From the IMG/VR virus record IMGVR_UViG_3300037454_000603, positions 15,646 to 79,645 of that record: 64,000 nt of DNA, one strand, 5' to 3'. This DNA is from a virus (lineage: Duplodnaviria; Heunggongvirae; Uroviricota; Caudoviricetes). Positions 3,388 through 52,457 of the stretch are shown in pieces (the stretch's first letter is position 1; each line of letters begins with the position of its first letter). A model generated the notes under the pieces. That model saw nothing but the letters and a program-made list of their open reading frames with translations. It did no database searches and was not told where the DNA came from. A program made the translations under genes and the position numbers.

Positions 3388-4190
3388 TTAGAATCCAAAA
3401 TCTGAATTATCAATCTCTAATTTATCTAATTCTTTTCTCATTCTCTTTAGAATATCAAGGCCTACCTTTTTCTTTTCTGTCTCTTCTAAATTAGAAGTTG
3501 CTTTAGCCTCTTCACTAAATTTAGCATATAGTTCTTTATCATATTCTTTAATATGTCCCGCAAGCCTATTAATTTCTTTTCTTATCTCATCAAGCGGCAC
3601 AGCAGCGTCAGCAGGACAAGAATAAAAGACAAAATGATTATGTTTGTGTTCAACAATATAGCCTTTATCAATTAATTCCTACTTAGCCTTTCTATATGTG
3701 CTTTCTGCAAGACCATAAGCCTACTAAAAATTTTTAGGAGATAAATTAAATTCCCAACCGTCTTCATTTTCTGCAAAATATAAGTATAACTTAAATCCAG
3801 ATGGAGTTAAATTCTTTGCCGCCTCTCTAATTTCATCAATTTCTATATACATAAACTTCATCCCCTTTTCCTTATATTTAGGTTTACATATTTTTCCAAA
3901 TAACTAATTTGGAATTCCTTTTGTTAAATTATAACCATTGTTATATGTATTGAACTTATCAATCCATAAAATTTCTTTATCATCTAATTCATCGACATTA
4001 CATATCTCTAAAATTTCAAAATTGAAATTTTTTATTCCATATTTTTTAAAATCTAAATACAAAGGATTAGTGTTTAATCCCTCGCTATTTCGATGCTCTC
4101 GCCATCTTCTCTTAATATCTATCGACTATCCAATATAAGATTTACCATTTATTTTGTTTGTTATTTTATAAATTCCTATCATACACTATC
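3388..4190 (-). CDS. GIY-YIG homing endonuclease (MIGIYKITNKINGKSYIG-TAG-S...RRWREH) fused to a C-terminal DnaD/replisome-organiser-like HTH domain. At least five in-frame TAG codons.
   Basis: GIY..YIG and R..EH motifs with TAG at the canonical Gln position; TAA stop at 3388-3390; ORF 3388-3600 is its C-terminus. Confidence 0.7.
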
Positions 4191-4268
4191 CCCTCATAAT
4201 TATTTATTAATTTTATTATAGCATTCATTAGCTCTTTTTATTGCATCAGAAAGTTCAGTCTCTATATC

Positions 4269-15616: not shown

Positions 15617-15672
15617 TTCCTTTCTTATTTTCTATAATAATTATATCATAATTTTTTAAAAATTTCAAATAT
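15617..15672 (-). promoter_or_regulatory. Conserved promoter module (TTGAAA, 17 bp, TGATATAAT)
   Basis: Identical to the copy at 16517-16572. Confidence 0.75.
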
Positions 15673-16508: not shown

Positions 16509-16661
16509 AATATTTACCTCTTTCTTATTTTCTATAATAATTATATCATAATTTTTTAAAAAAATCAAATAAAAATTAAGGACAGTTATCCTTAAAAGAT
16601 AAACTGTCCGTGTAAAAACTCCCTAAGAGCTTTTTATATTTACTTTTTTAATCATACGGAG

Positions 16662-16733
16662 CAGGTTGTCAAAGACTTGAACTCTGACCGTCGCATTTGG
16701 ACTGCGAAATGCTACCAATTACACCAACAACCC
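16662..16733 (-). tRNA. tRNA-Trp (CCA)
   Basis: Anticodon stem TCGCA/TGCGA; loop GTCCAAA; T-arm CAGAG-TTCAAGT-CTTTG. Confidence 0.65.
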
Positions 16734-16740
16734 ATATAAG

Positions 16741-16813
16741 TAGGGAGAGGTAGAATCGGACTACCATCTTGACTTTATCAGAATCAAATACTTAACCATT
16801 ATACTATCTCCCC
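16741..16813 (-). tRNA. tRNA-Ile (GAU)
   Basis: Acceptor GGGGAGA/TCTCCCT; T-arm GGTAG-TCCGATT-CTACC; loop CTGATAA. Confidence 0.6.
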
Positions 16814-16819
16814 ATTTAA

Positions 16820-16892
16820 AGCTCCCACTCCGTGATGATCGGAGCTCTATCGCTTACAAGGCGATTATTCTACCAACATAAACTATGGGAGC
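16820..16892 (-). tRNA. tRNA-Thr (UGU)
   Basis: Acceptor GCTCCCA/TGGGAGC; anticodon stem ATCGC/GCGAT; loop CTTGTAA. Confidence 0.65.
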
Positions 16893-16917
16893 ATTCTTTT
16901 AAAAACTTAGTAAAAAG

Positions 16918-16991
16918 TAGCCCCAACGGAACTCGAATCCGTATCTAGAGATTGAAGGTCTCTTATCCTCACCCAATTAGACGATGGAGCC
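16918..16991 (-). tRNA. tRNA-Glu (UUC), loop CCTTCAA
   Basis: Acceptor GGCTCCA/TGGGGCT; anticodon stem AGAGA/TCTCT; T-arm ACGGA-TTCGAGT-TCCGT. Confidence 0.6.
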
Positions 16992-17150
16992 ATTTCTCGG
17001 TTTTACTTCGCTTCTTAATTTTAACGAGTGTTTTCCGCAAAGCCACATATCACTGGGAGCGGCCCAGTGTCGGTGGTAGTTTAAACCGTAAATCCGTGTT
17101 AACCCTCGAATGATTTTATCAACAAGTGAAAGGCAATTCATTAGCCATTT

Positions 17151-17190
17151 TGGTGCCGCAGGGGAGACTTGAACTCCCGACGCCCACGTC
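17151..17190 (-). tRNA. 3' half of a split tRNA (anticodon-stem 3' strand CGTGG, T-arm GGGAG-TTCAAGT-CTCCC, acceptor CTGCGGC, then A-CCA)
   Basis: Pairs with the 5' half at 17659-17694 (acceptor GCCGCGG, anticodon-stem 5' strand CCACG). Confidence 0.6.
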
Positions 17191-17218
17191 TTGGTCCTAA
17201 TAAGAAGAATTGAACTTC

Positions 17219-17632
17219 TCAAATTTTTAAATAGTCTTCATAAGTAATGTGGTTTTTTGCTTCAAGATAATGAAACTCATGATGACAATTAGAACAAAGC
17301 AAAACACATTTTTCTAATTCATCAAAAGCAGCTTGTACCTTAACATTATTACCGCTACAGTACGAGCCAATATTAAACTCTTTTTCATTAGGATTTAAAT
17401 GATGAAATTCCAATGAAGCTTGACATTTATCATAGCCGCATTTTTCACATTTTCCACCCTTCCGTTTTATGAGTTCTTTTTTAAGAGCATGGCGTATTGC
17501 TGTAATTGTCTACGCACGACCTTGGCTATCGCCTTTGTCGTAGCTAGGAGAGCAATCAAAACAATACTTTCTACTTTCACCATGTGGGATGGTTTCAAAA
17601 TCTTTTCCACATATTAAACACTATTTAATCAT
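17219..17632 (-). CDS. HNH endonuclease with an N-terminal zinc ribbon (CSNCHHEFH). Two in-frame TAG codons. Lies between the two halves of a tRNA gene.
   Basis: ATG at 17630-17632 with RBS AAAGGTG; TGA stop at 17219-17221; the 3' exon begins 30 nt later. Confidence 0.65.
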
Positions 17633-17658
17633 TTGTTCACCTTTCTGAATATTAAGTC

Positions 17659-17694
17659 AGCGTGGCGCTCTACCAAATACTGAGCTACCGCGGC
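17659..17694 (-). tRNA. 5' half of a split tRNA (GCCGCGG-TA-GCTC-AGTATTTGGTA-GAGC-G-CCACG-CT...)
   Basis: Complete acceptor 5' strand, D-arm and anticodon-stem 5' strand, then the sequence runs into the HNH ORF. Confidence 0.6.
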
Positions 17695-17698
17695 TTAG

Positions 17699-17772
17699 CG
17701 GTTCTAGCGGTACTTGAAACCGCGACCCTCGGCTTGACAAACCGATGCTCTGACCAACTGAGCTATAGAACC
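17699..17772 (-). tRNA. tRNA-Asp (GUC)
   Basis: Acceptor GGTTCTA/TAGAACC; D-stem GCTC/GAGC; loop TTGTCAA; T-arm GCGGT-TTCAAGT-ACCGC. Confidence 0.8.
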
Positions 17773-17778
17773 AAATAA

Positions 17779-17849
17779 CGGGAGATGAGGGAATCGAACC
17801 CACGCCCTGACGTTAACAGCGTCGCGCTCGACCTTCGAGCTAATCTCCC
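17779..17849 (-). tRNA. tRNA-Asn (GUU)
   Basis: Acceptor GGGAGAT/ATCTCCC; D-stem GCTC/GAGC; loop CTGTTAA. Confidence 0.7.
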
Positions 17850-18264
17850 ATATCCCCACTCTAAGTTTATATTGCGAGAGCGGGCACCGCATCTGCCAGT
17901 AGTTTAAAGTCTTCGGTCAGCAAAGGCTCGGACTCTATTTATATTAGCGTCCAATAGTAAGGACGGTTCTTTTAAAAAGGTTTTCTCCTTTAAGCAGTTT
18001 ATTGTTAATACTTAGAACACGTCGATTTAGCCTACGAATCGTCGGCATTAGAGGCTGGGCTATAGCACCACTTTCATTTTCCTCTTTTTTTCTATAAAGA
18101 TTATATCATAAATTTCTTAAAAAGTCAAAATTTCAACTTTTAAGATTTTTATAATCGAAAGGAATCTGGCGGAATTATCAACGGCGCCGCCAGTCACCTC
18201 TTGTTTTAGAAAGGAAGAACAGTTTTAAAACTTGTTCAGGTTTGGAAGAAAAGTGCACCGAGGA

Positions 18265-19065
18265 TTAAATTTTCTCCCACTCTTCATCAGAAATTTTATT
18301 TATTTCCGTTTTTTTATATGGTAAATTTTCAGCTTTACACCATTTACGAATTGCATTATCAGATACTCCATAGTTTTTCCCAATTTGAACGAAAGATAAC
18401 GTTCTAATTAGCTATTTTAATTCTTGCCTATCAGGACGATTTTTTACAATTCGGTGCTATTTTTTATAGCAATCAACACAATAAGTACTCGTATTTCCTA
18501 TCTACTTACCACAAATTATACAAGTATTATTTGTTTGTTTATTATTTATCTATTCATTACTGCTACAAGTATCTTTTTTAAACTTATCTTTGTTTACTAC
18601 TCCATTTTTACGAATAGGATAACTTATACCCTCTTGAATCCAAGTCTCTCCAATATTTATACTGCTTATAGTTCGCTAAGATACATTAAACTATTTACCA
18701 ATATCTTCTTGACTCAATGTTGTAGTTGATAAAAGAGTAATTATATCCTAAGCCTACTATTTAGTTAATTTTACTGGTAAAGAAGTATTGCCGCCATCAG
18801 TTAGATTATATCCATTTAATGGATTATGACTATCATAATATTTTATCCAGTACTTTTCCCTATTATTTAATTCTTCAAGGCTACATTCCTCTACAACTTC
18901 AAATAAAAAGTTATCAATTCCATATTTTCTCATTGCTCGGTATATAGGATAATCATCTGTCTAATAATGCCCTCTATGTGCTTTCCAGCGTCTGCAAATA
19001 TTTTGAGACTATCCTATGTATATCTTTCCATTTATCTAATTAGTAATTTTATAAATACCGATCAT
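18265..19065 (-). CDS. GIY-YIG homing endonuclease (MIGIYKITN-TAG-INGKIYIG-TAG-S) with a C-terminal HTH tail (...WCKAENLPYKKTEINKISDEEWEKI). Multiple in-frame TAG codons.
   Basis: Motifs read by hand; TAA stop at 18265-18267; promoter-like module at 18090-18140. Confidence 0.65.
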
Positions 19066-25442: not shown

Positions 25443-26573
25443 TTATTTCAACCCCAAAAATTTTACAAGTTCTTTTGCAGTTTTTCCTTCAATAGAAAGT
25501 TTATCATCGTAAGCTAAATAAGCCCAATTTGTATGCTCATTTAAGTTCTTTTTAACCCAATCAGAAAATTCTTTTCGACTCGCGGCGCAGTGTTCTTTTT
25601 TCCAATTTTCAACCATTTCTTTAACAGCTAAAGTCATACCGATAGCAGCTTTATACTGTAAGCTAACTTTATGAAAGAAGTCACGGTATTGACCAAAATA
25701 AGCTAAAAACTCATCTTGCTCATTTTCAAGTATCATTGCCAGTGCTCTTTCTACTGTTAGAACGCCGTTATTCGCCATTCTATGGAGTTCTACATACTTC
25801 TCAGTTTTGATTTTAACTCTATCGAAATCTGCATCACAAACTACTATTCCTTCATTATTGTCGCCCATATTTTTAACAAATTCACAATAATCTCTTTTGC
25901 TATTAAAATAATAATGTTTGGGGGTCTCAAAACCGCAAGCATCTCCAATCATTTCAACCGCTTCAGGATAAAGTTCTAAAAGAGTTCTCATATCTCTAAT
26001 TGAAAGCAGATAGAGAGCAGGCTCAGGGTAATCTAAAACGATACGCGTAACAGGGCTTACAAGCTCAAAAGTCCAACACTTTATCTTATTATAGTTCTTA
26101 AAATTAGATAGAGGACAAACTGCTTCAAAAAGTTCTCCATAGGTTTTGTAAGGGCTTGCTGGATTATTAATTTCGGCTTTGAAGGCGTCAATACACCCAT
26201 TGGTCGACAAATGCCATTTACCACGAGCATACCAAGCAGACATTATAGAGCCATCTATTTTTTCACTTGCCCACGCGGTAGGCCATTCAATCTGCGCTGC
26301 GTGAGACTCTCCAAGATTAAAAAATCTTTCAAAGGCGAAACGAACAACTTTAAAATTCTGAGTTGAATCGAGAATAAGCCCTCTTGCTTCTCGGCATATT
26401 TTTTCATTAAAATCTGAGTTAATTTGGTTATACTTAAATAATACAAATCCATCATCCCAGCTTATTTTTAAGTTATATGGAGCACCAGAAAGGAGAGCCT
26501 CCCAATCTTTATGCTCATGTATGAATTTAACTATTTCTAACATCTTCTTCTCTCCATTTCCATTTATATCCAT
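25443..26573 (-). CDS. T4 Rnl1-like RNA ligase (motif I EKIDGS; FFNLGE; motif IV EGIVVC; motif V KIKTEKY)
   Basis: Motif order and spacing match RNA ligase 1 by inspection. Confidence 0.7.
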   Translation of the reverse strand: MDINGNGEKKMLEIVKFIHEHKDWEALLSGAPYNLKISWDDGFVLFKYNQINSDFNEKICREARGLILDSTQNFKVVRFAFERFFNLGESHAAQIEWPTAWASEKIDGSIMSAWYARGKWHLSTNGCIDAFKAEINNPASPYKTYGELFEAVCPLSNFKNYNKIKCWTFELVSPVTRIVLDYPEPALYLLSIRDMRTLLELYPEAVEMIGDACGFETPKHYYFNSKRDYCEFVKNMGDNNEGIVVCDADFDRVKIKTEKYVELHRMANNGVLTVERALAMILENEQDEFLAYFGQYRDFFHKVSLQYKAAIGMTLAVKEMVENWKKEHCAASRKEFSDWVKKNLNEHTNWAYLAYDDKLSIEGKTAKELVKFLGLK

Positions 26574-26688
26574 ACGCAGTTTTTCTATCTCCTTTACATA
26601 CTAAACGAATAGAATTTGCTGCACTTCTTGTTTTTCCTATTGCTAAAGCAGCTTCCTCACAAGCTTCATATGTAGCTATAAAATTTCC

Positions 26689-27410
26689 CTATAAGTCATA
26701 TTGATTAACAGGCCTTGCTCCTGTTTTTCGATATGGCTTTGGAGCTGGTTCTCCATGTTTTACAAATAAATATTTTAACGCTCTGCCGCCAGTAGATAGA
26801 GCAGTACTTACCATACTTTCTGTCATATTTAACGCATGAGCAGCAGCACGACCGGACTCATAAGTATTCAAAAAATTACCTTTTAAGTCATAACAGTCAA
26901 TGCAAATTTTTCTTGAAGATTGCATAGCTTTTGTTGCTTTTTCTTTTTGCCTTTGCTTTGCTTCTTCTGACCACCCTTTGAAACCAGATAGAGCATAATA
27001 CACTGTATTACGTCTACATTCATATTCTTTGGCAATTTCATCAACACTAAAGCCTTTGTCCCACAGATTCTTAAATTCCTAATAGTTATACTTCTGCGCA
27101 CCTTCGCCACCAATTGTCGAGTTATACCCTTCTTGGTAAGAGTTATATTCTGCTATCCAATAACATTCTCTATCAGAAAGCGCAGAATTATCTTCTACGT
27201 ATTCAAGCTCTTTTGCTTGAAAATGATCAATACCATATTTTCTTATTGCTTTATAAAAATGTGTATCATGACGGGAATCTCCCTCAGAAGAAAAAGCTCT
27301 ACGTTTATGTTCATGCCATCTATGTTCTATTGTAGAAATTGTCTATCCAATATAAACCTTATCGTTTATATCATTAGTAATTATATAAATGTATCCCATT
27401 TATATCGCCT
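26689..27410 (-). CDS. GIY-YIG homing endonuclease (MGYIYIITNDINDKVYIG-TAG-T...HRWHEH) with a C-terminal NUMOD-like DNA-binding tail. Two in-frame TAG codons.
   Basis: Hand translation; ORF 26689-27003 is its C-terminus. Confidence 0.65.
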
Positions 27411-34693: not shown

Positions 34694-36157
34694 TCAAGCC
34701 CAAGTAAACTCGGGCTTAGTTAAAATTTCTTCCATTGCTTCAAAAGCACTTTTATTAATCAAAGTCTGCATGAATTTGAAAGTTCCAGTACTTTGACCAG
34801 AAACATAGCCAACATTTTCACTACATCTTGAAAGAGTATTGTTGCTTCTAGATTCAACATTCCAGTAGATAATCTTGCTCATAGGAACTCCAATATATTC
34901 AAACTTTTTCTTCCACTTTTCAGCTATTGATTCGCAATAATCCTGTCCTGCCCAACTATTAACTTCCATATCTGAAATTATTACAATTGCTTTGGGAGCA
35001 TCATGACTCATTCGAGCAACTTCATAAACCTTAGCAAAAACTGCATCAAGGTTAGTTGACCAACCCCAGTTAGCACTCATGACCTGTCTTACGCACTGAG
35101 TTAAAGACCAATTATCAGAAATCTTATGGAAAGAAGGACTAGAGGAAAAATTACAAAAAATATTATGATATTCTCCATGATTTCTCTGGGCAAAATAAAT
35201 TGCAAGACCAACAGCAGTAGAAATAGGTCGATAACCATCGTATTCCATGGAACCACTGGTATCAGCTACTACGAGTATATTATCACTTTCGCCCACATAG
35301 TTAGGAAGTGCCTTCCACTGTTCCTCAGCTATAGTGTCAAGCTCTCTAACACTCTTGGAGCAAAGAGGCTTGACAATATCATAAGGATAAAGAGTTGCCG
35401 CATTAACCTTGGCTTCTCCCTTTACAAGAGCATCCTTATACTTCTGGAATCTCTCAGGAACTCTCTTGTTAAAAGTAGAAATATATCTACTCATAGCTAC
35501 GGAAGGAACGCCCTCAAAGTTAATTTCATTCCACTGGCCAGCGCTCATCTTCTTTTCGACCACGTCTATATACTTTCTCATTGTGGAAAGAGTCTTACGA
35601 TAAGTTCTAGGAGTTACACTAAACTTTTTGCAAAACTTATTTGCCAACTTTCTGGTTTCGTCAGATGAAGTATTAATAGATGGCATCCATTTAGCAAGCA
35701 AAGTAATGGGTTTATTCTCTCTCATATTCTTCACATCAGTTCGAAATTGAGTCTCGACAAACTGCCACATTTCAGTTTCAACTGATGTTCCTTCAAAAAC
35801 AAAAAGGTCGTCCCATCTACCTGTATCAACAATCTTCTGGAAATTCTTCTTTATCTTCTCGGAATTAAATTTGGCAAGCTCTTTGAGAAGGAGTCGCCCA
35901 ATTCGTCTCTCTCCAAGACCACCATCTCTTACATTTCTAGCATAAAGGACGAGGTTATCCGCAAGTTCTTCATTTTCACGTCTCGCCGCCTTCCAAGTCT
36001 GAATTATATCTATATCTTCTCTATTCCTCATACCACCAATGTTAGCGAAAAGATCAAGCAAATCGCCGCCATCAGTGGTATTAAAACAACGTCCGCCATT
36101 CTCAGTATAAGTCTTAATTGCTTCATTCTTAAACATATCTGCAAAACTCATTTCCAT
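34694..36157 (-). CDS. rsr: Ro60/Rsr orthologue. N-terminal TROVE domain plus C-terminal vWA domain (MIDAS motif DTSGSM).
   Basis: Domain order and the MIDAS motif read by eye; an adjacent Y-RNA-like element lies at 36190-36292. Confidence 0.6.
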   Translation of the reverse strand: MEMSFADMFKNEAIKTYTENGGRCFNTTDGGDLLDLFANIGGMRNREDIDIIQTWKAARRENEELADNLVLYARNVRDGGLGERRIGRLLLKELAKFNSEKIKKNFQKIVDTGRWDDLFVFEGTSVETEMWQFVETQFRTDVKNMRENKPITLLAKWMPSINTSSDETRKLANKFCKKFSVTPRTYRKTLSTMRKYIDVVEKKMSAGQWNEINFEGVPSVAMSRYISTFNKRVPERFQKYKDALVKGEAKVNAATLYPYDIVKPLCSKSVRELDTIAEEQWKALPNYVGESDNILVVADTSGSMEYDGYRPISTAVGLAIYFAQRNHGEYHNIFCNFSSSPSFHKISDNWSLTQCVRQVMSANWGWSTNLDAVFAKVYEVARMSHDAPKAIVIISDMEVNSWAGQDYCESIAEKWKKKFEYIGVPMSKIIYWNVESRSNNTLSRCSENVGYVSGQSTGTFKFMQTLINKSAFEAMEEILTKPEFTWA

Positions 36158-37238: not shown

Positions 37239-37315
37239 TGGTTTCTCGGCTCCGAATTGAACGGAGGTTTCAAGCTTTTAGAGAGCTGAATGCTGACCAC
37301 TTACACTACCGAGAA
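37239..37315 (-). tRNA. Amber suppressor tRNA, anticodon CUA (loop CTCTAAA), U1-A72 Gln-like acceptor, CCA encoded
   Basis: Acceptor TTCTCGG/CCGAGAA; D-stem GTGT/GCAT; anticodon stem CAGCT/AGCTT; T-arm CTCCG-TTCAATT-CGGAG. Confidence 0.8.
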
Positions 37316-37321
37316 ATATTA

Positions 37322-37990
37322 TTAAATTTTATCCCATTCTTCATTGGAATAAGAATTAATGTCTTTTTTTCTTCTTGGAAGTCCATATTTATCACACCAT
37401 TTTCTTACTGCATTATCGGATACATTACAATTTTTTCCTATTTCACTAAAAGAAAATTGACGTATCCTTTGCTTAAGTTCTTCTCGTGTAAAAGGACATT
37501 TCCATTTCTTCTCTTTCTTTTCCTCTTTTTCTTCTTTTTTTCTTATGGGATAAGATTGATTCTTTTGCTTCCACATTTTCCCATTGTTTATCTAGGATAT
37601 TAAACAATGACTAACGTTATATTTCTTTGCAATTTCTTCCCCAGTAAGAGAAGCGTTTTTTAAATCATATACAATTTCATTTGCAATATTCCAGTTAATT
37701 TTGTACTACATATTTTCAATAGTACTCATATTATATCCATTCGGGGTCATTGTATTATATTTATTTATATAATATTTTTCTTTATCATTAAGTTCTGTCA
37801 AGGCGCATTCTTCTATTACCTCGAAAGAGAAGTTCTCTTTTCCATACTCTCGCATTGCCTAATATAATAAAGTATTCTTTGTATTCATTTTATTCTAATG
37901 TTCTCTCCATCTTCTTCTAATATCATTGGACTATCCAATATAAGACATTCCATTAGATTTATTAGTAACTTTATAAATTCCTATCATTTA
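37322..37990 (-). CDS. GIY-YIG homing endonuclease (MIGIYKVTNKSNGMSYIG-TAG-SNDIRRRWREH-TAG) with the shared C-terminal HTH tail. Four in-frame TAG codons.
   Basis: Hand translation; ORF 37322-37576 is its C-terminus. Confidence 0.7.
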
Positions 37991-38280: not shown

Positions 38281-38793
38281 TTATTTAGATAGCATATTTG
38301 CTACACCAGAAGCCGCATAGCTATCTGGCTTAATTCTAGCTTCAAAACCTGAAGCCTCAATCCAACCACAAATTTCTTTTATAAGTTCCTTAGTCTTGCC
38401 GCGGCGACCAATGTCAGCATGAACAGCAAAAGACAAACGATTTTCATCAAACATTATATCAAGATCAATGTTATCTTCAAGTAGTTCTTCTTGAAGAGCA
38501 TCAATGAAACCCATTGCATTCACAATTGAACGGTTAGTTTCTTCGATAATCTTTTCCTTTAGGACTTTTATCTTAGGAATATCTTCTCTGCGGAAGAAAA
38601 AAATACCACCGTCACCAATACGGCAAACAGCTATAACTTCAACCATACGAGTCATTTTGTGATTTTGAGAGTCAGTACCAACAGTTATATCATAACTTTC
38701 TGAAGGATTAACTCTAATGTAATCTGCAATTACCTTAATCATTTCGCTGTAAGAAACTTCCTGACCATTACCACGCTTAAATATCTTTTCCAT
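38281..38793 (-). CDS. Hypothetical protein, possibly RNase H-like fold (ITVGTDSQ)
   Basis: Intact ORF; weak motif only. Confidence 0.3.
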   Translation of the reverse strand: MEKIFKRGNGQEVSYSEMIKVIADYIRVNPSESYDITVGTDSQNHKMTRMVEVIAVCRIGDGGIFFFRREDIPKIKVLKEKIIEETNRSIVNAMGFIDALQEELLEDNIDLDIMFDENRLSFAVHADIGRRGKTKELIKEICGWIEASGFEARIKPDSYAASGVANMLSK

Positions 38794-38889: not shown

Positions 38890-39008
38890 TCGAGATGACA
38901 GGACTTGAACCTGCAGCTTCTTGCTCCTGGCGCCAATGGCTGGAGTTGCACCAGCTAATACTCTTCACTGACCAAAGCAAGCCGTCTACCAAATTGACTT
39001 ACATCTCG
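38890..39008 (-). tRNA. Aberrant ~119-nt tRNA-like gene. Acceptor (CGAGATG/CATCTCG) and T-arm are good, but there is a ~45-nt extra segment between the D-arm and T-arm. Anticodon unresolved.
   Basis: CTTGC...GCAAG brackets a 50-nt insert. Confidence 0.4.
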
Positions 39009-39018
39009 TTATATGGAC

Positions 39019-39780
39019 TTAAATTAAAGCCCATTCTTCATCTGTATAGTTATTTATATCTGTCTTTCTTCTAGGTAGTTTTTCAAAATCACACCATTTG
39101 CGAATAGTATTATCAGAAACATTATATATTTTTCCTATTTGAGTAAAAGGTTTTGTACGAATTAATTGTTTTAACTCTTCCCTTGAAGGTCGCTCAACTG
39201 TTCTAAAAAATAACTAATTACATTTTACACATCTAGTAGATTTATAATCTATTTCTGCTCCACAATCTATACAATATTTTTGTTCTCTTTTATCTCCATG
39301 TCTTTTTTTAGATATTGCTTGAATGGGATATTCTCTATCATGTTTCCAATATCGTCCAGTATTAATACCTTGTATCATTTCTACAGATATATTCCACTTT
39401 TCTGCTATTTCTCTATGAAACATATCTGTCTTTTCTAAATCATTTATTATACCAATAATTTTTTCCTTATTAATTTCATTTCCAGAGCTATCTCCGCCAA
39501 TAGTCAAATTATATCCCTCAAAAAATGAATTATACTATTTAATATAGCTTTTTTCTTTTTCATTCAACTCAGAAACTAAACATTCTTCAAGAACTTCAAA
39601 AGTAAAATTTTCAAAACCGTATTTTCTTATTGCTCTGTATAAAGGTTTATCATAATTATGATCATTAGGATTAAATGCAGTTGATTTATGACCTCTCCAT
39701 CTTTTCTTTATATCTTTGCTCTATCCAATATAAACTTTTCCGTTAATCTAGTTTGTAATCTTATAAATTCCTATCATATT
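39019..39780 (-). CDS. GIY-YIG homing endonuclease (MIGIYKITN-TAG-INGKVYIG-TAG-SKDIKKRWRGH) with a zinc ribbon and the shared HTH tail. In-frame TAG codons.
   Basis: Hand translation; ORF 39214-39507 is an internal piece. Confidence 0.65.
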
Positions 39781-39890
39781 TACCACTCTCCATACATCAT
39801 TAACCACTCATTTAATATAAAATTAAGGGAAGAGTGAGTGGTTACTCTTATCAATAGGTTTGCAATTCCTATCTATCCCCTAATATCAAT

Positions 39891-40260: not shown

Positions 40261-41040
40261 TCAAATTTTTTTCCAATCTTCTTCAGTATAATGCTCTATA
40301 TCTGCTTTTCTATAAGGAAGATTTTCATTTTTACACCATTTGCGAATTGCATTATCTGTAACTCCAAACATTTCTCCAATTTTAGTAAAAGGCAAAGTTT
40401 TAATTAATTGTTTTAACTCTTCTCGATTAGGTCGATTTACTTTACGATTTTTTAATCTATTACATTTATCACATCTAGTAGAACCAAACAATATTTTAGT
40501 ACCACAATCAATACAATACGTATCTGGATTTTTAATTTTCTTAAAATATTCTTCTTTTTCTCTTAATGGATACTGTAAAATATCTTTCACCCAACTCTTA
40601 CCAGTATTAATATTAGATATTAAAGACTAATCGACTTGATACTTCTGTGCTAAATCATTCTATGAAATTTCAGTATAAAGTAAAGCCTTGATTATTTCAT
40701 CGACCTATACCTCATTTAATTTCAAAGGATGTGGAGTATTGCCTCCGTCATCCTAATTATAACCATAGTCATTATCATTGGAATGATAATAACTAATCCA
40801 ATATTTTTCTCTATCATTCAATTCTTCAATAAAACAACTTTCAATTATCTCAAATCGAAAATTCTCTATTCCATATTTTCTTATTGCCCTATATAGTGGA
40901 TAATTATAGCCCTTATTGTTTGGATTATGGGCAGCACATTTATGATTTTGCCATCGTTTTTTAATATTTCTACTCTACCCAATATAAATTTTTCCATTAA
41001 TTAAATTAGTAATTTTATAAATTCCTATTTCTACATTCAT
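40261..41040 (-). CDS. GIY-YIG homing endonuclease (MNVEIGIYKITNLINGKIYIG-TAG-S) with a zinc ribbon and the HTH tail. In-frame TAG codons.
   Basis: ORF 40261-40590 is its C-terminus; terminator hairpin at 41090-41112. Confidence 0.65.
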
Positions 41041-41857: not shown

Positions 41858-42141
41858 ATTATTTTATATATATTCTAACCAAGAATATAAATGTTATAAC
41901 CCCACTCCTAGGTTTTATTTTATACGCTCCTATCCCCAGAATAGGTGGCATACAATACCTAAGTCCAAAAGTACCATAGAATTACATCGCGCCGCGACCA
42001 CTATGATATTTCTACTTGTTATAACTTCCCAAGTTTATCTTTAATTAAACCCCTTTCTTTTTAAGGACAAGACACTATTTAAATACAATCAGTTCCCAAA
42101 ACAGATGTTATTTAATAGCTGTAAGTGTCTTTGATGAATGG

Positions 42142-42216
42142 TTTCAGCGGAAGGATTTGAACCTTCGGTGTCCTGTTTTAGAGACAGGTGCGTTAAACCC
42201 ACTTCGCCACGCTGAA
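42142..42216 (-). tRNA. Second amber suppressor tRNA, anticodon CUA (loop CTCTAAA), U1-A72. Its sequence differs from copy 1.
   Basis: Acceptor TTCAGCG/CGCTGAA; anticodon stem CCTGT/ACAGG; T-arm GAAGG-TTCAAAT-CCTTC. Confidence 0.8.
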
Positions 42217-45807: not shown

Positions 45808-46500
45808 TCAGTGTGCGCTTGTATCAAATTCATCTACATATTTCCAATAATATCCTTTATATAACTATCCGTCATTAAAATGATGTTTTAGAATTGTACC
45901 TTTTAATCCTAAAGAAGAGGCCGCTTGTCTATTTGAAGAAAAAGTATTTATTAAATTCCAATCTTTATCATATTGTAATACTGTTTTACCTTTTCCTCCG
46001 CTAGTATGCGGTTCAATTCTATTTACAGGTCTATTATCATCTGAAAATCTCCACTAATAATTTCCTGCACTGTAACATCCGCCTCTTGCTGCTCTCTAAA
46101 TATTAGCATTTTCAATACCTGTTTTTGCCGAAGCTTCTCCACAAGATTTAAATTCTGCAACAAAATTTCCCTCTAAATTATACTATTTTATAGGTCTAGC
46201 ATTAAAAGAAGTACCATTTCCTTCTCCTTTTCCTTCCGTCATGTTATATCCATTTTTATAACTATCATAATATGATATCCAATATGCTTCTCTTAATATT
46301 AAATCTTCTTCTGGGCACTCTTCAATAACTTCAATATTAAAATTATCAATGCCATATTTACGCATAGCAAAATATAGATGAGTATTCTTATTCTAATAAG
46401 AAGATTTATGTTCTTTCCAACGGTGTTCTATATTATATCTAGTCATTCCGATATAAAGTTTGTTATTTATTATATTTGATATCTTATAAATATATCCCAT
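45808..46500 (-). CDS. GIY-YIG homing endonuclease (MGYIYKISNIINNKLYIG...HRWKEH) with C-terminal NUMOD-like repeats. Five in-frame TAG codons. Ends with TGA.
   Basis: Hand translation; ORF 46183-46365 is an internal piece. Confidence 0.65.
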
Positions 46501-46528
46501 TTTCAAAACTCAACTCCTTTATTACAAT

Positions 46529-48141: not shown

Positions 48142-48390
48142 TTAAAGAACCTCTTCAAAACCAAAAACACAATATCCTTCTTTTAATCCATATCCATTTA
48201 AAACATAATTAATTTGATAAAGTTTTTCATTAATTGGATATGTAACAGGAGTTAAATCTTCATAACAAACAAAACTAATATAGTCACCTTTTTGATATCC
48301 TCTGTCATTTTCTCGAACTTCAAATCTTTTACTACCTTCCATGATTGCTGCCGCAAAAGGTCGTTGAATTTTTATTGTATGTGTCATTTT
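48142..48390 (-). CDS. ASCH/DUF3850-like small protein (MTHTIKIQRPFAAAIMEGSKRFEVRENDRGYQKGD)
   Basis: Start assumed at the internal ATG within ORF 48142-48621. Confidence 0.45.
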   Translation of the reverse strand, partial: KMTHTIKIQRPFAAAIMEGSKRFEVRENDRGYQKGDYISFVCYEDLTPVTYPINEKLYQINYVLNGYGLKEGYCVFGFEEVL

Positions 48391-48703
48391 ATCCCACCCT
48401 TTGATTATATCCATATTCATCACTATGGTAGTATTTTGTCCAATATTTTTCTTTTTCTGTCTATTCTTCTTTTGGACAAACCTCAACAATTTCCCAAGTA
48501 AAATTTTCAAGTCCTTCGTTCCACATAGCATCATAAAGCTATCCTTTAATTCTTTCAATATTGCATCCACGTTTAGCATGTGTACGCCAACGAGATAGAA
48601 AAGAAGCAGATGTTTTTCCAATATAAACTTTTTGATTCTTAATATTGGTTATTTTATAAATACCACCGTTATCTTTGTCTCCACTTAAAACTCTTTTAAA
48701 CAT
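48366..48703 (-). CDS. Short GIY-YIG nuclease (GGIYKITNIKNQKVYIGKTS...RWRTHAKRGC). Two in-frame TAG codons. Apparently in frame with the upstream TAG-rich coiled-coil ORF.
   Basis: Hand translation; TAA stop overlapping the ASCH-like gene. Confidence 0.5.
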
Positions 48704-49447
48704 TTCTTCTATTCTAGTTTTATAATAAACATCATATATAAGCTTATAAATAACTTCCTATTTAGAAAAAGTTAAAGCTAAAGTTTTAAGTTTCTCAATA
48801 TCTGCCTTCTCTATATCATTAATCTAAACTCGATAAAAATCGGCTTGCTATTTTCTTTCTTCATCAAGCTTAAAGCGAGCAATTATCTCTTTCTATTTAC
48901 TCTCATATTCCTGAATCTCTTTATTTAGAGTTTCCCTTTGTTTGGATATTTGCTCGCTAAATATGAAAAAATCTTTATCAAGCTCCTCTTTTTTATCTTT
49001 ATAATTAGCCTTTAAATTTTCTAGTTCAGTCTAAAATTTTTTAGTTTCTTCTGAAATTTGCATAGTCTACTCTTGACTTCTACGCTGTGCCGCCGCCCTG
49101 TCCATTTCTTCCACCTATTGACGGCGGCGTAAATAATCTTGAGTTAATTCTTCAGTTTTTTGCTAAAAATTCTATTTTTCTTTGTTATAATTTCGGTTAA
49201 GTTGCTCAAGAGAACGACGAAGTTCTTCCTGTTTAATAAGATGTTCTTGGGTTAATTCCTTATCAAAAATATCTTTCTTTTCTTTTAGACCATTAAGAAC
49301 TTTACTTTGAGATTTTTTAAATTCCTTCTTTTCAACATCTCTTCCTCGTGCAACTAGACAAATATACATTGCCGCGGCACCAAGAAGAAAGCAAAGTATT
49401 ACAAGTAAAATTGTTACTACCATTCGGTTATTCCTCCTTCTTTTCAC
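48704..49447 (-). CDS. TM-anchored coiled-coil protein (MVVTILLVILCFLLGAAAMYI...) with at least eight in-frame TAG codons
   Basis: ORF 49172-49447 continues through TAG codons; the boundary with the downstream GIY-YIG gene is unresolved. Confidence 0.35.
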
Positions 49448-50210
49448 TTACAACCTTATGGTCTCTTGCCTTTCCCTCTTCTATATATCTTAAAAGAGTT
49501 TCTAAACTAATTTCTCTATGACAAGAATAACGCTCAGGACAATAATGAAGTCTTTTACACTTGGGTACAAATATTTCTAATTCTTTTACAAGATATTCCC
49601 ATTCATCAGAATAAATGCAAAGAGCATCTAAAATTTCATTACACAAATCTCTAATTTCCCAATAAGCCCTTTGACATAATCTTTGTTCCATTATGTTTAT
49701 AAGTTCTCTAAGTCCTACTCTAAACATCATTTTAGTTGAATAACTTAAAGGCAAAATTTCACTAGCATCTTCTTTAGCAATACCCATTTCCTTTAATGCT
49801 TTCATTGTTTCATTTGCATTTACCATAAAAAAATCATAAAGATCTTTTGCTTCACTATTTTTTTCTATATCCTTTGGAGTGATATAATCAAAATTATCAT
49901 AATTGATATAACGAGTTGAGGCCTGAAGACGAGTGACATCAATTATATGTGTATAAAGTTCTCTAATACACTTTGCAGACCAACCATCAAGTACCATGTA
50001 AATTTGAGGAAATTCAAGTGTTCTCCAATGCCCACTTTTAAAACAATCAACTCCTCGTTCAAAATTTTTCTTATTATTTTTAATATCAGCTCCCCAACAA
50101 ACTCCTGCTGCAAACCCTGCAAAAGTAAGAGGTTCGTCTGTTGTTTCACTTAGGATAATAACTCTACCCTTCTGGTCAAATCGTCTGCTCAGCATAATTT
50201 TCCTCCTCAT
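49428..50210 (-). CDS. ThyX-like (flavin-dependent thymidylate synthase family) protein. The canonical RHR motif is replaced by YTH.
   Basis: RLCQRAYWEIRDLCNEIL matches the ThyX helix RLCHRAQWEIRELAEAM; upstream segment ELYTHIIDVTRLQASTRY. Confidence 0.5.
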   Translation of the reverse strand: MRRKIMLSRRFDQKGRVIILSETTDEPLTFAGFAAGVCWGADIKNNKKNFERGVDCFKSGHWRTLEFPQIYMVLDGWSAKCIRELYTHIIDVTRLQASTRYINYDNFDYITPKDIEKNSEAKDLYDFFMVNANETMKALKEMGIAKEDASEILPLSYSTKMMFRVGLRELINIMEQRLCQRAYWEIRDLCNEILDALCIYSDEWEYLVKELEIFVPKCKRLHYCPERYSCHREISLETLLRYIEEGKARDHKVVSEKKEE

Positions 50211-50795
50211 TATTCATAGATTCAAATAATTCTAAATCTTCAATTCTTCGACTTATATAATTAAGTTCAAGCGGATAGTAGTCTAAAGCTTTGAAGCTAA
50301 TGTTTAAAATTTTATCTTGTATTTTTTCTTTAAAGCCAATTATTGATGTTGGGGCGGCAAATAGTTTCCCTTCTGTTGAATAGCGATAAACATAATCATC
50401 TCCTGCAAGATAAAGAACATCTACTTTATTACCATTATAATTAGTTTGATAACTCCAACCATCAGTTCTCCAATTTTTAAAACAATTCCAAGGTTTTTCT
50501 TTATATTTATTATCTCTACTTAAAATTATAATTTCACCGTCAATTTGTTTTAAAAGTTCAATTGTTTCATCATCGTTCTTTTCGTTGATTATACCACAAA
50601 GAATTATACTATCTTCTTTTTTAACAAACTCGTTAATTCTCTAAATCACAAACTTATTATATTCTCTAGGAGTTTTTCTCAATTGTCGTGCCGCATCTCG
50701 ACTAAATAGATTTAAATCTCCAACAATCCAACATTTACTCATTCTATCCCTCCTTTATAATATAATTATATCATTTTTAAAGAAAAAAGTCAAGA

Positions 50796-52457
50796 TTAAA
50801 TCTTGACTTCTGTTTTTTCTTTAAGTATCTGTCTCACATATTCCATTGTAAGACTACCACAAATCTTTCCAAAGCCTTCTATAGCTTGAACAGTATCAGG
50901 CTCTTCTTTAAGGCAATCTTCATAAACAAGACGATTAATATTCTTTGCAATAGTTCCCATGTGAGTCTCGTTCCAATCCCAAGGAATTATTTGATCTTCA
51001 GCAAGTTTTTCCAGAATTTTCTCAATACGACGACGAGTTACTACTGTTGCGGCATAGTTACGTAAAGCTTCCTTTTTCTTAAGCTCTTCTGGGTCGACAG
51101 GTTTCTTATGGTCTTTATGAACTTCACTAAACTTCTCAGAAACAAGCTTTAAATATATTGGACGTCTACTATCATTATCTTTAAGACGCTCCTGTGATTT
51201 TACTACTACACCTTCGCCGCAAGGCTGGGCATTAAGATTTGTTTGCCCAATAAAAGAATAAACATGGTCCCAACCTCTAAATGGACCAGTATAAAATATA
51301 GGTGCCATATAGATAGTTTCCATAACCTTCATTGTTGACTTAGCAAGACCATTAAAAATAGCAAGCACATCTTCAAAAGGTAACCAACTTTCTTCTACAG
51401 TATCCCATATATCAAAAAGATAAAATTTTTTATAAAAAACTTCATCATATGAAATTGTATGTTTACAATTATGCACAATAAAATTATTAGCGATAAAATT
51501 GGCTATATTTTCGTTGCCACTCATACAAATATCATAACAATCTTCTTCACCGACATCCTCGATAGAAATAATATAGTCAAACTCATAATCAAATTTAGGC
51601 TGATTCTTAAATTTAGTATGACTATTTCCGTGACAATCTTGACAAAGTACTTGCCAATTATCTTCAGTATTATGAAAAGGATTCTCATCTTTATGATGAA
51701 GATTTAGTCCATTTGTGGCTCCGCATATCTCACATTTTCCAATTCTATCCTTGTATTCTTTCTGTTTTCTAAATATCTCTCTCGTACCAATTCCATAAGT
51801 TCTTTGATGAGTATTCCTTGTAATAAAATCTGTAATAGCAACACAATCATACTCAGAAAGTTTTCCTAATTCTACCCACCCCTTAGGAGTTAAAAAAGGA
51901 TGATTAGCAGTAGCTTTAATTGAATAACCTTTATGAGTTGTCAGCTTATAAACCTTTTTCTTTCCAGTATAAACAATTTCTTGTATTTTATTGGGCTGAA
52001 TTATATCAGTTTCCAAATCAAGAGAATAAATACTTGGATAGCCATTCCTCTCCCACCAGCTCTTAGTTCTTCCCTCTTCTGGAGTATGAGCATATTCATA
52101 CATTTCTTTCAGCGTCATTTCTTTTTTTCCTTTTCCTGCGCTGACTTTTTTAATAACTGTATCTCCAGAAAGACAAAGCCATTCGCCAAACAAAATATAA
52201 CGACCGTAATTAGTTGCAATAGCTACGGCCTGTTTAGGTAAACGTTGAGTCCACTCCCAAAAACCATTAAGAGTATTCATTTCATTTAACGGTCGGCGAC
52301 GAGAGAAAGCAACAACGCTATCTGTTTCGGAATCATAGGAAAATGCACTTGAGGATCCGTCAACCTTCTCACTTATTGTAATCTCTTCTCCTATTTTAAA
52401 ACAATTGATATATTTTTCTTTTAAACGTTCTATATCTATATACTTTTTTTGTTTCAT
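50796..52457 (-). CDS. Rnl2-like RNA ligase (motif I EKVDGSS; FGEW; FDIWD; EGVVVK). Interrupted by an intein (residues ~95-330) that carries an HNH domain.
   Basis: Intein boundaries FGEWL/CLSGDTV and FIVHN/CKHT; HNH CEICG...HHKDENPFHN...LCQDCH. Confidence 0.65.
   Translation of the reverse strand: MKQKKYIDIERLKEKYINCFKIGEEITISEKVDGSSSAFSYDSETDSVVAFSRRRPLNEMNTLNGFWEWTQRLPKQAVAIATNYGRYILFGEWLCLSGDTVIKKVSAGKGKKEMTLKEMYEYAHTPEEGRTKSWWERNGYPSIYSLDLETDIIQPNKIQEIVYTGKKKVYKLTTHKGYSIKATANHPFLTPKGWVELGKLSEYDCVAITDFITRNTHQRTYGIGTREIFRKQKEYKDRIGKCEICGATNGLNLHHKDENPFHNTEDNWQVLCQDCHGNSHTKFKNQPKFDYEFDYIISIEDVGEEDCYDICMSGNENIANFIANNFIVHNCKHTISYDEVFYKKFYLFDIWDTVEESWLPFEDVLAIFNGLAKSTMKVMETIYMAPIFYTGPFRGWDHVYSFIGQTNLNAQPCGEGVVVKSQERLKDNDSRRPIYLKLVSEKFSEVHKDHKKPVDPEELKKKEALRNYAATVVTRRRIEKILEKLAEDQIIPWDWNETHMGTIAKNINRLVYEDCLKEEPDTVQAIEGFGKICGSLTMEYVRQILKEKTEVKI
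51468..52175 (-). other. Intein (Hint domain plus HNH homing endonuclease) inside the Rnl2-like ligase
   Basis: Block A CLSGDT at the N-terminus, block G VHN-C at the C-terminus. Confidence 0.6.

Follow-up and report, generated by a model that had tools for sequence, protein, structure and literature searches.

The question raised by positions 17,151 to 17,694 of a 64,000-nucleotide (nt) stretch of phage DNA (Caudoviricetes; IMG/VR record IMGVR_UViG_3300037454_000603, positions 15,646 to 79,645; the whole stretch is called the window) is what kind of element splits a transfer RNA (tRNA) gene into two halves, and whether that gene can still yield a tRNA. The gene lies on the minus strand (17694..17151), and its halves, read directly from the sequence, flank a 465-nt insert (17656..17192). 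A preliminary description of this DNA had reported tRNA halves bracketing an HNH open reading frame (ORF) at 17219-17632 with two TAG codons, and direct reading of the sequence bears out both the coordinates and the description. The answer favoured here, with a probability of about 0.55, is that the insert is a mobile intron of tRNA-mimic type, that its tRNA-Phe(GAA) gene is functional, and that the intron would be excised by RNase P and RNase Z and the exons sealed by a phage RNA ligase. The tRNA-mimic architecture and the intron status, judged from sequence, are very probable, and the particular pathway of RNase P, RNase Z and Rnl1 is close to an even bet.

The split tRNA-Phe gene and its embedded minihelix

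Exon 1 (17657..17694, minus strand; GCCGCGG UA GCUC AGUAUUUGGUA GAGC G CCACG CUGA) contains the 5' strand of the acceptor stem, the D-arm, the 5' strand of the anticodon stem (CCACG) and the loop positions C32, U33, G34 and A35. Exon 2 (17151..17191, minus strand; AGA CGUGG GCGUC GGGAG UUCAAGU CUCCC CUGCGGC A CCA) continues with A36, G37 and A38, followed by the 3' strand of the anticodon stem (CGUGG), the variable loop, the T-arm, the 3' strand of the acceptor stem, A73 and CCA. Across the insert, 7 base pairs (bp) of acceptor stem, including one G.U, and 5 bp of anticodon stem are formed.

The conserved ends of the insert are themselves the acceptor/T-arm minihelix half of a tRNA, which accords with the "different kind of insertion" that the preliminary description had offered as one option; the minihelix with its CCA end had not been recognised there. 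On the minus strand, an acceptor-like 5' strand CUUAAUA (17650..17656) pairs at 7/7 positions with UAUUAGG (17202..17196), and a T-arm-like hairpin AGAAG UUCAAUU CUUCU (17203..17219) has 5/5 pairs and a T-loop-like loop, its first A doubling as the final base of the TGA stop of the HNH ORF. The acceptor-like 3' strand UAUUAGG, together with a discriminator A and CCA (17192..17202; A-CCA at 17195..17192), abuts exon 2 directly. The 7-bp acceptor-like stem is contiguous with the 5-bp T-stem, giving a 12-bp stack with a T-loop, and the ribosome-binding site and HNH ORF occupy the place of the D and anticodon arms. Among the ordinary tRNA genes of the window, CCA is encoded in 4/24, counted from Rfam match ends, and thus the CCA of the intron is not a habit of this genome; the other 20/24 lack it, and the next bases are typically CUU, UUA or CUA. 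The phage therefore relies on its host for 3' maturation by an RNase Z-type enzyme and for adding CCA. The full nested grammar with its T-loop motif occurs at 2 sites in the window and at 0 in 60 Markov shuffles; because it is absent from the shuffles and the halves covary in four lineages, the nesting of the halves is not due to chance. Two other readings of the insert were discarded: a 5' hairpin CUGA...UCAG, considered as a P1-like element, is not conserved in locus L004, and ARAGORN called 0/5 short inserts tested alone, which speaks against nested functional tRNAs.

The boundaries of the minihelix place the 465-nt intron (17192..17656, minus strand) between positions 35 and 36. The intron mode of ARAGORN calls the gene at 17151-17694 with an intron of the same length, 465 nt, and its default mode does not call it. 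When the minihelix is taken out exactly, a 7-nt loop CUGA|AGA with the anticodon GAA is left, and ARAGORN identifies the spliced construct as tRNA-Phe(gaa); the in silico product folds as a cloverleaf with GAA and resembles intact tRNA-Phe, a tRNA-Phe being also its best intact match. The predicted exon-exon junctions of the spliced tRNAs are ...GCGCCACGCUGA|AGACGUGGGC... and ...GCUUGCUUUG|GGAGCAAG.... Only two registers restore a 7-nt loop, namely CUGA|C...CCA|AGA and CUG|A...ACC|AAGA, and the A shared at the junction makes 34/35 a register equivalent to 35/36 for this intron. The junctions and the anticodon had earlier been considered uncertain; the minihelix now fixes the junctions and makes the anticodon GAA (Phe). 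ARAGORN's own register, Leu-CAA, is ruled out by the 5-nt variable loop and by a body matching tRNA-Phe, and a Val-GAC anticodon (CUGAC+GA) by the minihelix boundaries and by intact alleles with CUGAAGA. ARAGORN finds no other Phe or Pro tRNA in the window than this interrupted tRNA-Phe and an interrupted tRNA-Pro.

Comparison was extended to fetched phage loci, short pieces around tRNA arrays, which are given L-numbers. The HNH homologs nearest in sequence are likewise embedded in this split tRNA and are 98% (L002/L003), 78% (L004-L008) and 68% (L094) identical. For four lineages (the window, L002, L004 and L094), ORF-deleted mini-precursors were aligned and the pairs of the nested structure counted: 132/132 pair cells are standard pairs, and 12 pairs are changed on both sides, versus 0-1 in slid controls. 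No helix is lost in any copy, and the both-side changes number 2 in the outer acceptor stem, 5 in the anticodon stem, 1 in the outer T-stem, 2 in the intron acceptor-like stem and 2 in the intron T-stem. The anticodon stem is altered at each of its five pairs (CCACG/CGUGG, CCGCG/CGCGG, UAGGC/GCCUA), the intron stem of L094 is CUUGAUU/AAUCAGG with two double compensatory changes, and the intron T-stem becomes AAGAG/CUCUU in both L004 and L094. This pattern indicates that the tRNA-Phe is under purifying selection across the insert.

Alleles with an empty site are present in related genomes. Intron-plus tRNA-Phe occurs in the window, L002, L004 and L094, and intron-minus tRNA-Phe in L146, L126 and L100; moreover, intact tRNA-Phe with the core GGUAGAGCG-N5-CUGAAGA-N5-GCGU is found in at least 120 IMG/VR contigs, so that the comparison with relatives proposed in the preliminary description came out in its favour. 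In L100, the acceptor stem of the intact gene is the same down to the G6.U67 wobble, and the L146 tRNA-Phe equals the predicted spliced tRNA-Phe of L004, the anticodon stem and D-loop aside. A 30-nt core identical to the predicted exon-exon junction is present in 6 JGI contigs, as genomic alleles and not as complementary DNA. L126 and L146 have uninterrupted Phe and Pro genes, share with the window the gene order Leu-UAA / Pro / Leu-AAG / RNaseH-like, and encode RNaseH-like proteins 65-66% identical to that of the window; the TROVE-like protein of L146 is 50% identical to the window's. By these likenesses, both look like relatives of this phage with the two sites empty. As for the locus itself, a search of annotated phages for exact or near matches gave distant HNH matches only, the exact 5' half and relatives of the neighbouring proteins were not found in IMG/VR, and the 3' end of the Phe intron was not found in GTDB genomes, JGI metagenomes or IMG/VR.

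The HNH ORF (17219..17632, minus strand; ATG at 17632, TGA at 17221-17219) has 137 codons, is preceded by a Shine-Dalgarno sequence AAAGGUGA at 17644-17637, and contains two in-frame TAG codons, at codons 4 and 41. It matches the PHROG family phrog_2255 (E = 7e-26), and a Pfam search gave no match at E ≤ 0.01; it has 250 homologs, and H77, H78, N115, H117 and H121 are invariant in a set of 33 homologs. The non-coding RNA of the insert, estimated earlier at about 45 nt, measures about 51 nt (24 nt 5' and 27 nt 3'), close to that figure, and the ORF takes the position of the 10-15-nt linker found in ORF-less introns of the minihelix design. TAG is a sense codon in this phage: reading it as such raises the minus-strand ORF content from 8.5k to 14.5k codons, and the 26 tRNAs that ARAGORN finds in the window include two tRNA(CUA) genes, an amber suppressor at 37239..37315 (minus strand) and a second copy at 42139-42216 (Rfam tRNA match 42142-42216). 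With two TAG codons, translation of the HNH ORF would depend on the suppressor tRNAs of the phage.

HNH homologs that match the ORF in length and are 70-73% identical to it stand free, outside any intron, in L009, L092 and L093, and in L009 and L093 they adjoin intact tRNA-Phe genes. Free-standing homing endonucleases are known from other phage tRNA clusters, such as T4 SegB and those of the T5 tRNA region; unlike all of these, the HNH gene of the window lies inside a tRNA, within the intron minihelix. The arrangement fits an endonuclease that targets tRNA-Phe DNA and may have colonised a pre-existing ORF-less intron. By the purifying selection across the insert, the empty site in relatives and the HNH identity of the ORF, the preliminary description is upheld where it proposed an intron or a homing insertion placed in the anticodon loop. 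The window also carries at least eight GIY-YIG-like ORFs, all on the minus strand and mostly between tRNA genes (3388-4197, 18265-19065, 26527-27399, 37322-37987, 39019-39807, 40261-41040, 45808-46506 and 48389-49447); two are confirmed by Pfam GIY-YIG, and the others are recognised by an N-terminal motif only. Each has 2-12 in-frame TAG codons, so their translation would depend on amber suppression, and many neighbouring ORFs carry no TAG. The load of genes resembling homing endonucleases is unusually dense.

A second intron in tRNA-Pro and the recurrence of the design

The interrupted tRNA-Pro(UGG) gene of the window (38890..39008, minus strand) was found as a 119-nt Rfam tRNA match of 49.3 bits with a 49-nt insertion, and is likewise not called by ARAGORN in default mode. 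Its intron of 45 nt (38972..38928, minus strand) has no ORF and reads GUCAGUG-AAGAGUAUUA-GCUGG UGCAACU CCAGC-CAUUGGC-G-CCA, with a 10-nt linker, and the loop at the junction is UUUG|GGA. When this precursor is globally aligned with the intact, syntenic tRNA-Pro of L126, a single 45-nt gap results, which equals the predicted intron. A strict grammar scan with the T-loop motif hits exactly the tRNA-Phe and tRNA-Pro introns in the window.

Scaffold-aware scans and an ARAGORN intron-mode census of the fetched loci added seven introns, so that nine independent minihelix introns are known from the window and these loci (Phe, Pro, Lys twice, Ile-UAU three times and Thr twice). At position 35/36 are the Lys-UUU introns of L046 (50 nt) and L094 (48 nt) and a Thr-UGU intron of L015 (65 nt); at 34/35 are the Ile-UAU intron of L015 (72 nt), the Thr-UGU intron of L019 (117 nt) and an Ile-UAU-like intron of L180 (81 nt); the Ile-UAU intron of L018 (73 nt) lies at 36/37. 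In 9/9 introns, the element that begins with the 7-bp stem and closes with the C-N-A triplet is exactly as long as the insert minus a 7-nt loop. The 3' end is N-CCA in 7/9, N-CAA in one (Thr of L015) and N-CUA in one (L180), the middle base of CCA thus varying in 2/9, which is a caveat. The Phe, Pro and Lys introns have no D and anticodon arms. The eight splice products that were built (from genes of the window, L002, L004, L046, L015-Ile, L018 and L019) are all canonical tRNAs, and an intact tRNA of the same isotype, where present, is the best match to the splice product and carries the loop as predicted. The class is rare: a new 1.04-Mb sample, selected by tRNA-Phe and not by HNH, contained 1 case.

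Several other inserts were observed in the same loci. In the introns of L015, L018 and L019 (72-117 nt), a D-arm-like motif UAGUUUAA(1-3 nt)GUAAAA stands just after the acceptor-like 5' strand, and GAAGAU precedes the T-arm in 2/3 of them, which points to a sub-family whose fold comes closer to a whole tRNA. A type II tRNA at L073 1068-1188 carries a perfect hairpin of about 34 nt in the anticodon loop, without T-arm or CCA, and may be yet another insert type. Inserts of about 195-245 nt with shared group-I-like 3' ends (...UAGUGAAAACUAUAGUGGUA...) occur in many phage tRNAs (L036 3260-3541, L051 3257-3539, L070 3285-3563, L037 2393-2709, L068 2253-2562 and 3541-3805, L043 2673-2970); for the L037 insert, the sole locus of this set that was scanned, there was no group I match at the Rfam gathering threshold. 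As well, a ROOL RNA (RF03087, 301.7 bits) at L015 5701-6296 adjoins the tRNA array of an IMG/VR phage contig.

Proposed splicing pathway

In the proposed pathway, the tRNA cluster would be transcribed as one precursor. A promoter-like site upstream of the tRNA-Asn/tRNA-Asp/tRNA-Phe(intron) cluster (18100..18128, minus strand, read 18128-18100) is predicted from consensus only, with 11/12 matches to a sigma-70-like sequence and an extended TG, and a sequence scan detected no significant internal promoter and no terminator-like site between the tRNA-Phe halves. Host RNase P would take the minihelix for a pre-tRNA and cut at its 5' edge, leaving exon 1 with the end ...CUGA-3'OH (A35), and an RNase Z-type activity would cut right after the CCA, freeing the intron and leaving exon 2 with the start 5'-P-AGA (A36). 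The halves would be kept together by the acceptor and anticodon stems, 12 or more bp, and an RNA ligase acting on 3'-OH/5'-P ends, most probably the T4 Rnl1-like enzyme of the phage, would close the 35/36 nick in the anticodon loop. The freed 465-nt intron could double as the messenger RNA for the HNH protein, its ends clamped by the minihelix, with translation only once amber-suppressor tRNAs are present. The HNH protein might then cut intron-less tRNA-Phe alleles of co-infecting relatives, and in this way the intron would spread.

RNase P, RNase Z and the CCA-adding enzyme all gauge a substrate by its 12-bp stack of acceptor and T-stem, its T-loop and its N-CCA, and the insert has both the 7+5-bp stack with its T-loop and the 3' N-CCA. 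Minihelices are reportedly substrates of RNase P, as McClain, Guerrier-Takada and Altman are said to have found in 1987. An embedded tRNA-like structure that would serve as an RNase P/RNase Z signal recalls mitochondrial tRNA punctuation, plant mitochondrial t-elements and the mascRNA of MALAT1; unlike the present case, these separate RNAs without re-ligation of the flanks, whereas here the element lies inside a tRNA and the exons would have to be joined. RNase Z enzymes, that of B. subtilis included, cut CCA-containing precursors mainly immediately 3' of CCA; the acceptor stem is a strict requirement and precursors with a matured 5' end are favoured, the archaeal enzymes tested tolerate loss of the other arms, and in T. 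maritima the CCA end is generated directly by RNase Z and sometimes by RNase E (PMC7479834).

The candidate for the sealing step is an ORF of T4 Rnl1 (gp63) type at 25443..26756 (minus strand), which matches PF09511 (2.1e-14) and phrog_562 (8.1e-43, profile positions 33-359 of 377); it has 4 TAG sense codons, an uncertain start codon and, besides the C-terminal region of Rnl1, a nucleotidyltransferase domain with the motif EKIDGS (KxDG). A nick in the anticodon loop is the preferred type of substrate of T4 Rnl1. The likeness to T4 tRNA repair (PrrC, Pnkp, Rnl1) thus lies in a full-length gp63 homolog and in an anticodon-loop nick as the proposed ligase substrate, but the T4 nick is host-inflicted damage at 33/34 that needs end healing, whereas the nick proposed here would be a programmed by-product of intron excision with ends ready for ligation. 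Rnl1 and Rnl2 need 3'-OH/5'-P ends (PMC7824862). The phage also encodes an Rnl2-type RNA ligase (50796..52457, minus strand; PF09414, 3.6e-18) interrupted by an intein (PF14890, 1.4e-17) that contains an HNH domain (PF01844, 3e-4). Its extein matches phrog_548 (3.9e-51), and gave no match in a PDB sequence search. This intein is another selfish element in an RNA-repair gene. In a single-sequence scan of IMG/VR for ligase co-occurrence, no relatives were found. That tRNA-mimic introns are a new class, without catalytic RNA or a dedicated splicing endonuclease, in which RNase P and RNase Z would excise and an Rnl1-type ligase would join, is put forward tentatively, at a little short of even odds.

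Competing explanations and significance

Several points weigh against excision by RNase P and RNase Z followed by sealing with the phage ligase. RNase Z of the B. subtilis type is strongly inhibited by CCA in Mg2+ (PMC7479834), and because the mostly CCA-less tRNAs of this phage imply a host that relies on such a CCA-inhibited enzyme, cleavage at the 3' side is where the proposal is weakest. The usual task of phage Rnl1 and Rnl2 is to repair tRNA cut by host anticodon nucleases (PMC7824862), so the presence of the ligase is no proof of a role in splicing; tblastn of the 217 loci, pieces around tRNA arrays that are too short to bear on co-occurrence, turned up no ligase genes. In 4/9 introns the -1 base could pair with the discriminator, possibly shifting RNase P cleavage. 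Two interrupted tRNAs of L037 (1454-1608, Pro-UGG-like; 3653-3819, Asn-GUU-like) contain a T-arm-bearing element with an 8-bp closing stem ending in ..ACC, preceded 5' by an extra hairpin-containing segment of about 30 nt, and RNase P cleavage at the junction misfits them; they look related to the minihelix introns without fitting them. The covariation statistics come from four sequences and are modest, although we call the pattern unambiguous, and splicing, the cut sites and the end chemistry are predictions, which we also count against the proposal.

Two of these points, the poor service that a CCA-inhibited bacterial RNase Z would give to a cut after CCA and the misfit of the L037 introns to RNase P cleavage at the junction, would be relieved if a dedicated endonuclease, of the phage or the host, excised an intron of the same architecture, with a kinase/phosphatase plus Rnl1, or RtcB, healing and sealing the ends. 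Candidates in the window are an RNaseH-like PF04308 protein (38281-38793, minus strand), which adjoins the interrupted tRNA-Pro and has conserved counterparts next to the tRNA arrays of L126 and L146, and a phosphoesterase-like ORF (50176-50742) found by PHROG search. Yet L126 and L146 possess the RNaseH-like gene and have intron-free Phe and Pro genes, no splicing endonuclease, Pnkp or RtcB was found in the 64-kb window, and the exact 7+5-bp stack, the T-loop and N-CCA are features measured by the universal enzymes of tRNA end processing. A dedicated enzyme is therefore considered unlikely, though it keeps a real share of the probability. Independently of this, a TROVE/Ro-like protein with DUF2828 and DUF7788 (34694-36157, minus strand) and the RNaseH-like protein lie within or beside the tRNA arrays of the window, and their genes are kept next to tRNA arrays in other phage contigs (L146, L126, L195, L009 and L014); RNA quality control or processing is a possible function of the two.

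A self-splicing group I intron whose ribozyme core overlaps the HNH ORF, as the preliminary description had suggested among its options, would be the conventional expectation, since group I introns with homing-endonuclease genes are the known intron type of the anticodon loops of bacterial and phage tRNAs (PMC3984707), and several 200-250-nt inserts in other phage tRNAs of the fetched loci resemble them. Known cases are those of cyanobacterial tRNA-Leu/fMet, proteobacterial tRNA-Arg/Ile, Patescibacteria and phage genes. The present introns share with them a bacterial-type anticodon-loop site, an optional HNH or GIY-YIG ORF looped out of a structured RNA, and presence/absence polymorphism. They differ in lacking a ribozyme core, the U at the 5' splice site and the terminal G, in having a conserved acceptor/T-arm minihelix with CCA, and in being, when ORF-less, 45-120 nt long and too small for self-splicing. 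At E ≤ 10, Rfam 15 returned only tRNA matches and noise for 16600-18200, with no group I, group II or small-ribozyme match, which also settles the ribozyme scan that had been proposed earlier; sensitive scans of the Phe and Pro intron regions were both empty of group I/II and small self-cleaving ribozymes, and a gathering-threshold scan of the whole window gave tRNAs only. In no register does the 5' exon end in the U of a P1 U.G pair, nor does the intron end in G. Against a group I size of about 200 nt or more, about 51 nt lie outside the ORF and introns of the same design measure 45, 48 and 50 nt; and the free-standing HNH homologs of the same length (70-73% identity; L009, L092, L093) mean that the ORF need not encode a ribozyme core. 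The group I reading is thus very improbable and was abandoned. Group II fares no better, there being no Rfam match, an ORF that is an HNH endonuclease only, and an intron of 465 nt. A pseudogene, in which a free-standing HNH cassette has inactivated the tRNA and nothing is spliced, could draw on the abundance of HNH and GIY-YIG genes in the tRNA arrays of this phage and on the gene being missed by ARAGORN in default mode. But this is the sole tRNA-Phe in the window, excision at the boundaries of the insert restores a perfect 7-nt loop, the helices within the insert covary as well, and the 12 compensatory changes with 100% pairing in four lineages include helices that span the insert; the disrupted tRNA of the preliminary description is rejected by this covariation and is given a very small chance. 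Equally slight is the chance of an archaeal-type bulge-helix-bulge (BHB) intron or of a split tRNA joined from halves that arise as separate transcripts. Archaeal tRNA introns do occur at non-canonical loop positions, and split tRNAs are known in Nanoarchaeum (PMC3491384). Like archaeal and eukaryal BHB introns, the present introns are short, lie in the anticodon loop, would be removed by proteins, and would have exon halves held by the tRNA body and then ligated. However, a BHB motif drawn by hand at canonical and shifted positions does not form: a 7-bp helix lies between the junctions, with ACCA as an unpaired 3' tail of 4 nt, where a BHB would have two 3-nt bulges around a 4-bp central helix, and no such central helix exists. 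Moreover, the positions are 34/35 to 36/37 against 37/38, the predicted ends are 3'-OH/5'-P against 2',3'-cyclic phosphate/5'-OH, and a scan of window ORFs turned up no splicing endonuclease (EndA/Sen). The phage shows bacterial traits (an 83-nt type II tRNA-Tyr, Shine-Dalgarno sites, a sigma-70-like promoter) and its host is probably bacterial, and a split tRNA is further opposed by the want of a significant internal promoter or terminator between the halves.

In its defining features, the element thus disagrees with each known intron class that could be tested, while the intron-encoded endonuclease ORF and the intron-plus and intron-minus alleles of related genomes are those of a mobile intron. 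The preliminary interpretation as a whole is partly supported: an intron with a homing endonuclease, not of group I. In the open-access literature, no description of tRNA-like introns was found; an earlier report is possible.

Four classes of intron are distinguished by their mode of removal, namely group I, group II, spliceosomal and BHB/endonuclease, and to our knowledge tRNA introns of bacteria and their phages have so far been synonymous with group I ribozymes. If the proposed pathway is true, pre-tRNA mimicry combined with universal enzymes and a ligase would be a fifth removal mechanism, and T4-type RNA ligases would gain a second, physiological role in housekeeping tRNA splicing besides the repair of nuclease damage. 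It would also account for the Phe, Pro, Lys, Ile and Thr genes that standard tRNA finders fail to detect in some phages, and would provide a minimal (45-nt), portable, protein-processed intron useful in synthetic biology. In the tRNA-Phe gene, a homing endonuclease would have colonised a non-ribozyme intron, the two forming a composite mobile element comparable to group I introns that carry such a gene, and, as the HNH ORF carries TAG codons, its expression would be tied to the late-stage code switch of the phage. Should the enzymes proposed here prove to be the wrong ones, a conserved architecture with its covariation would still demand a mechanism outside current textbooks.

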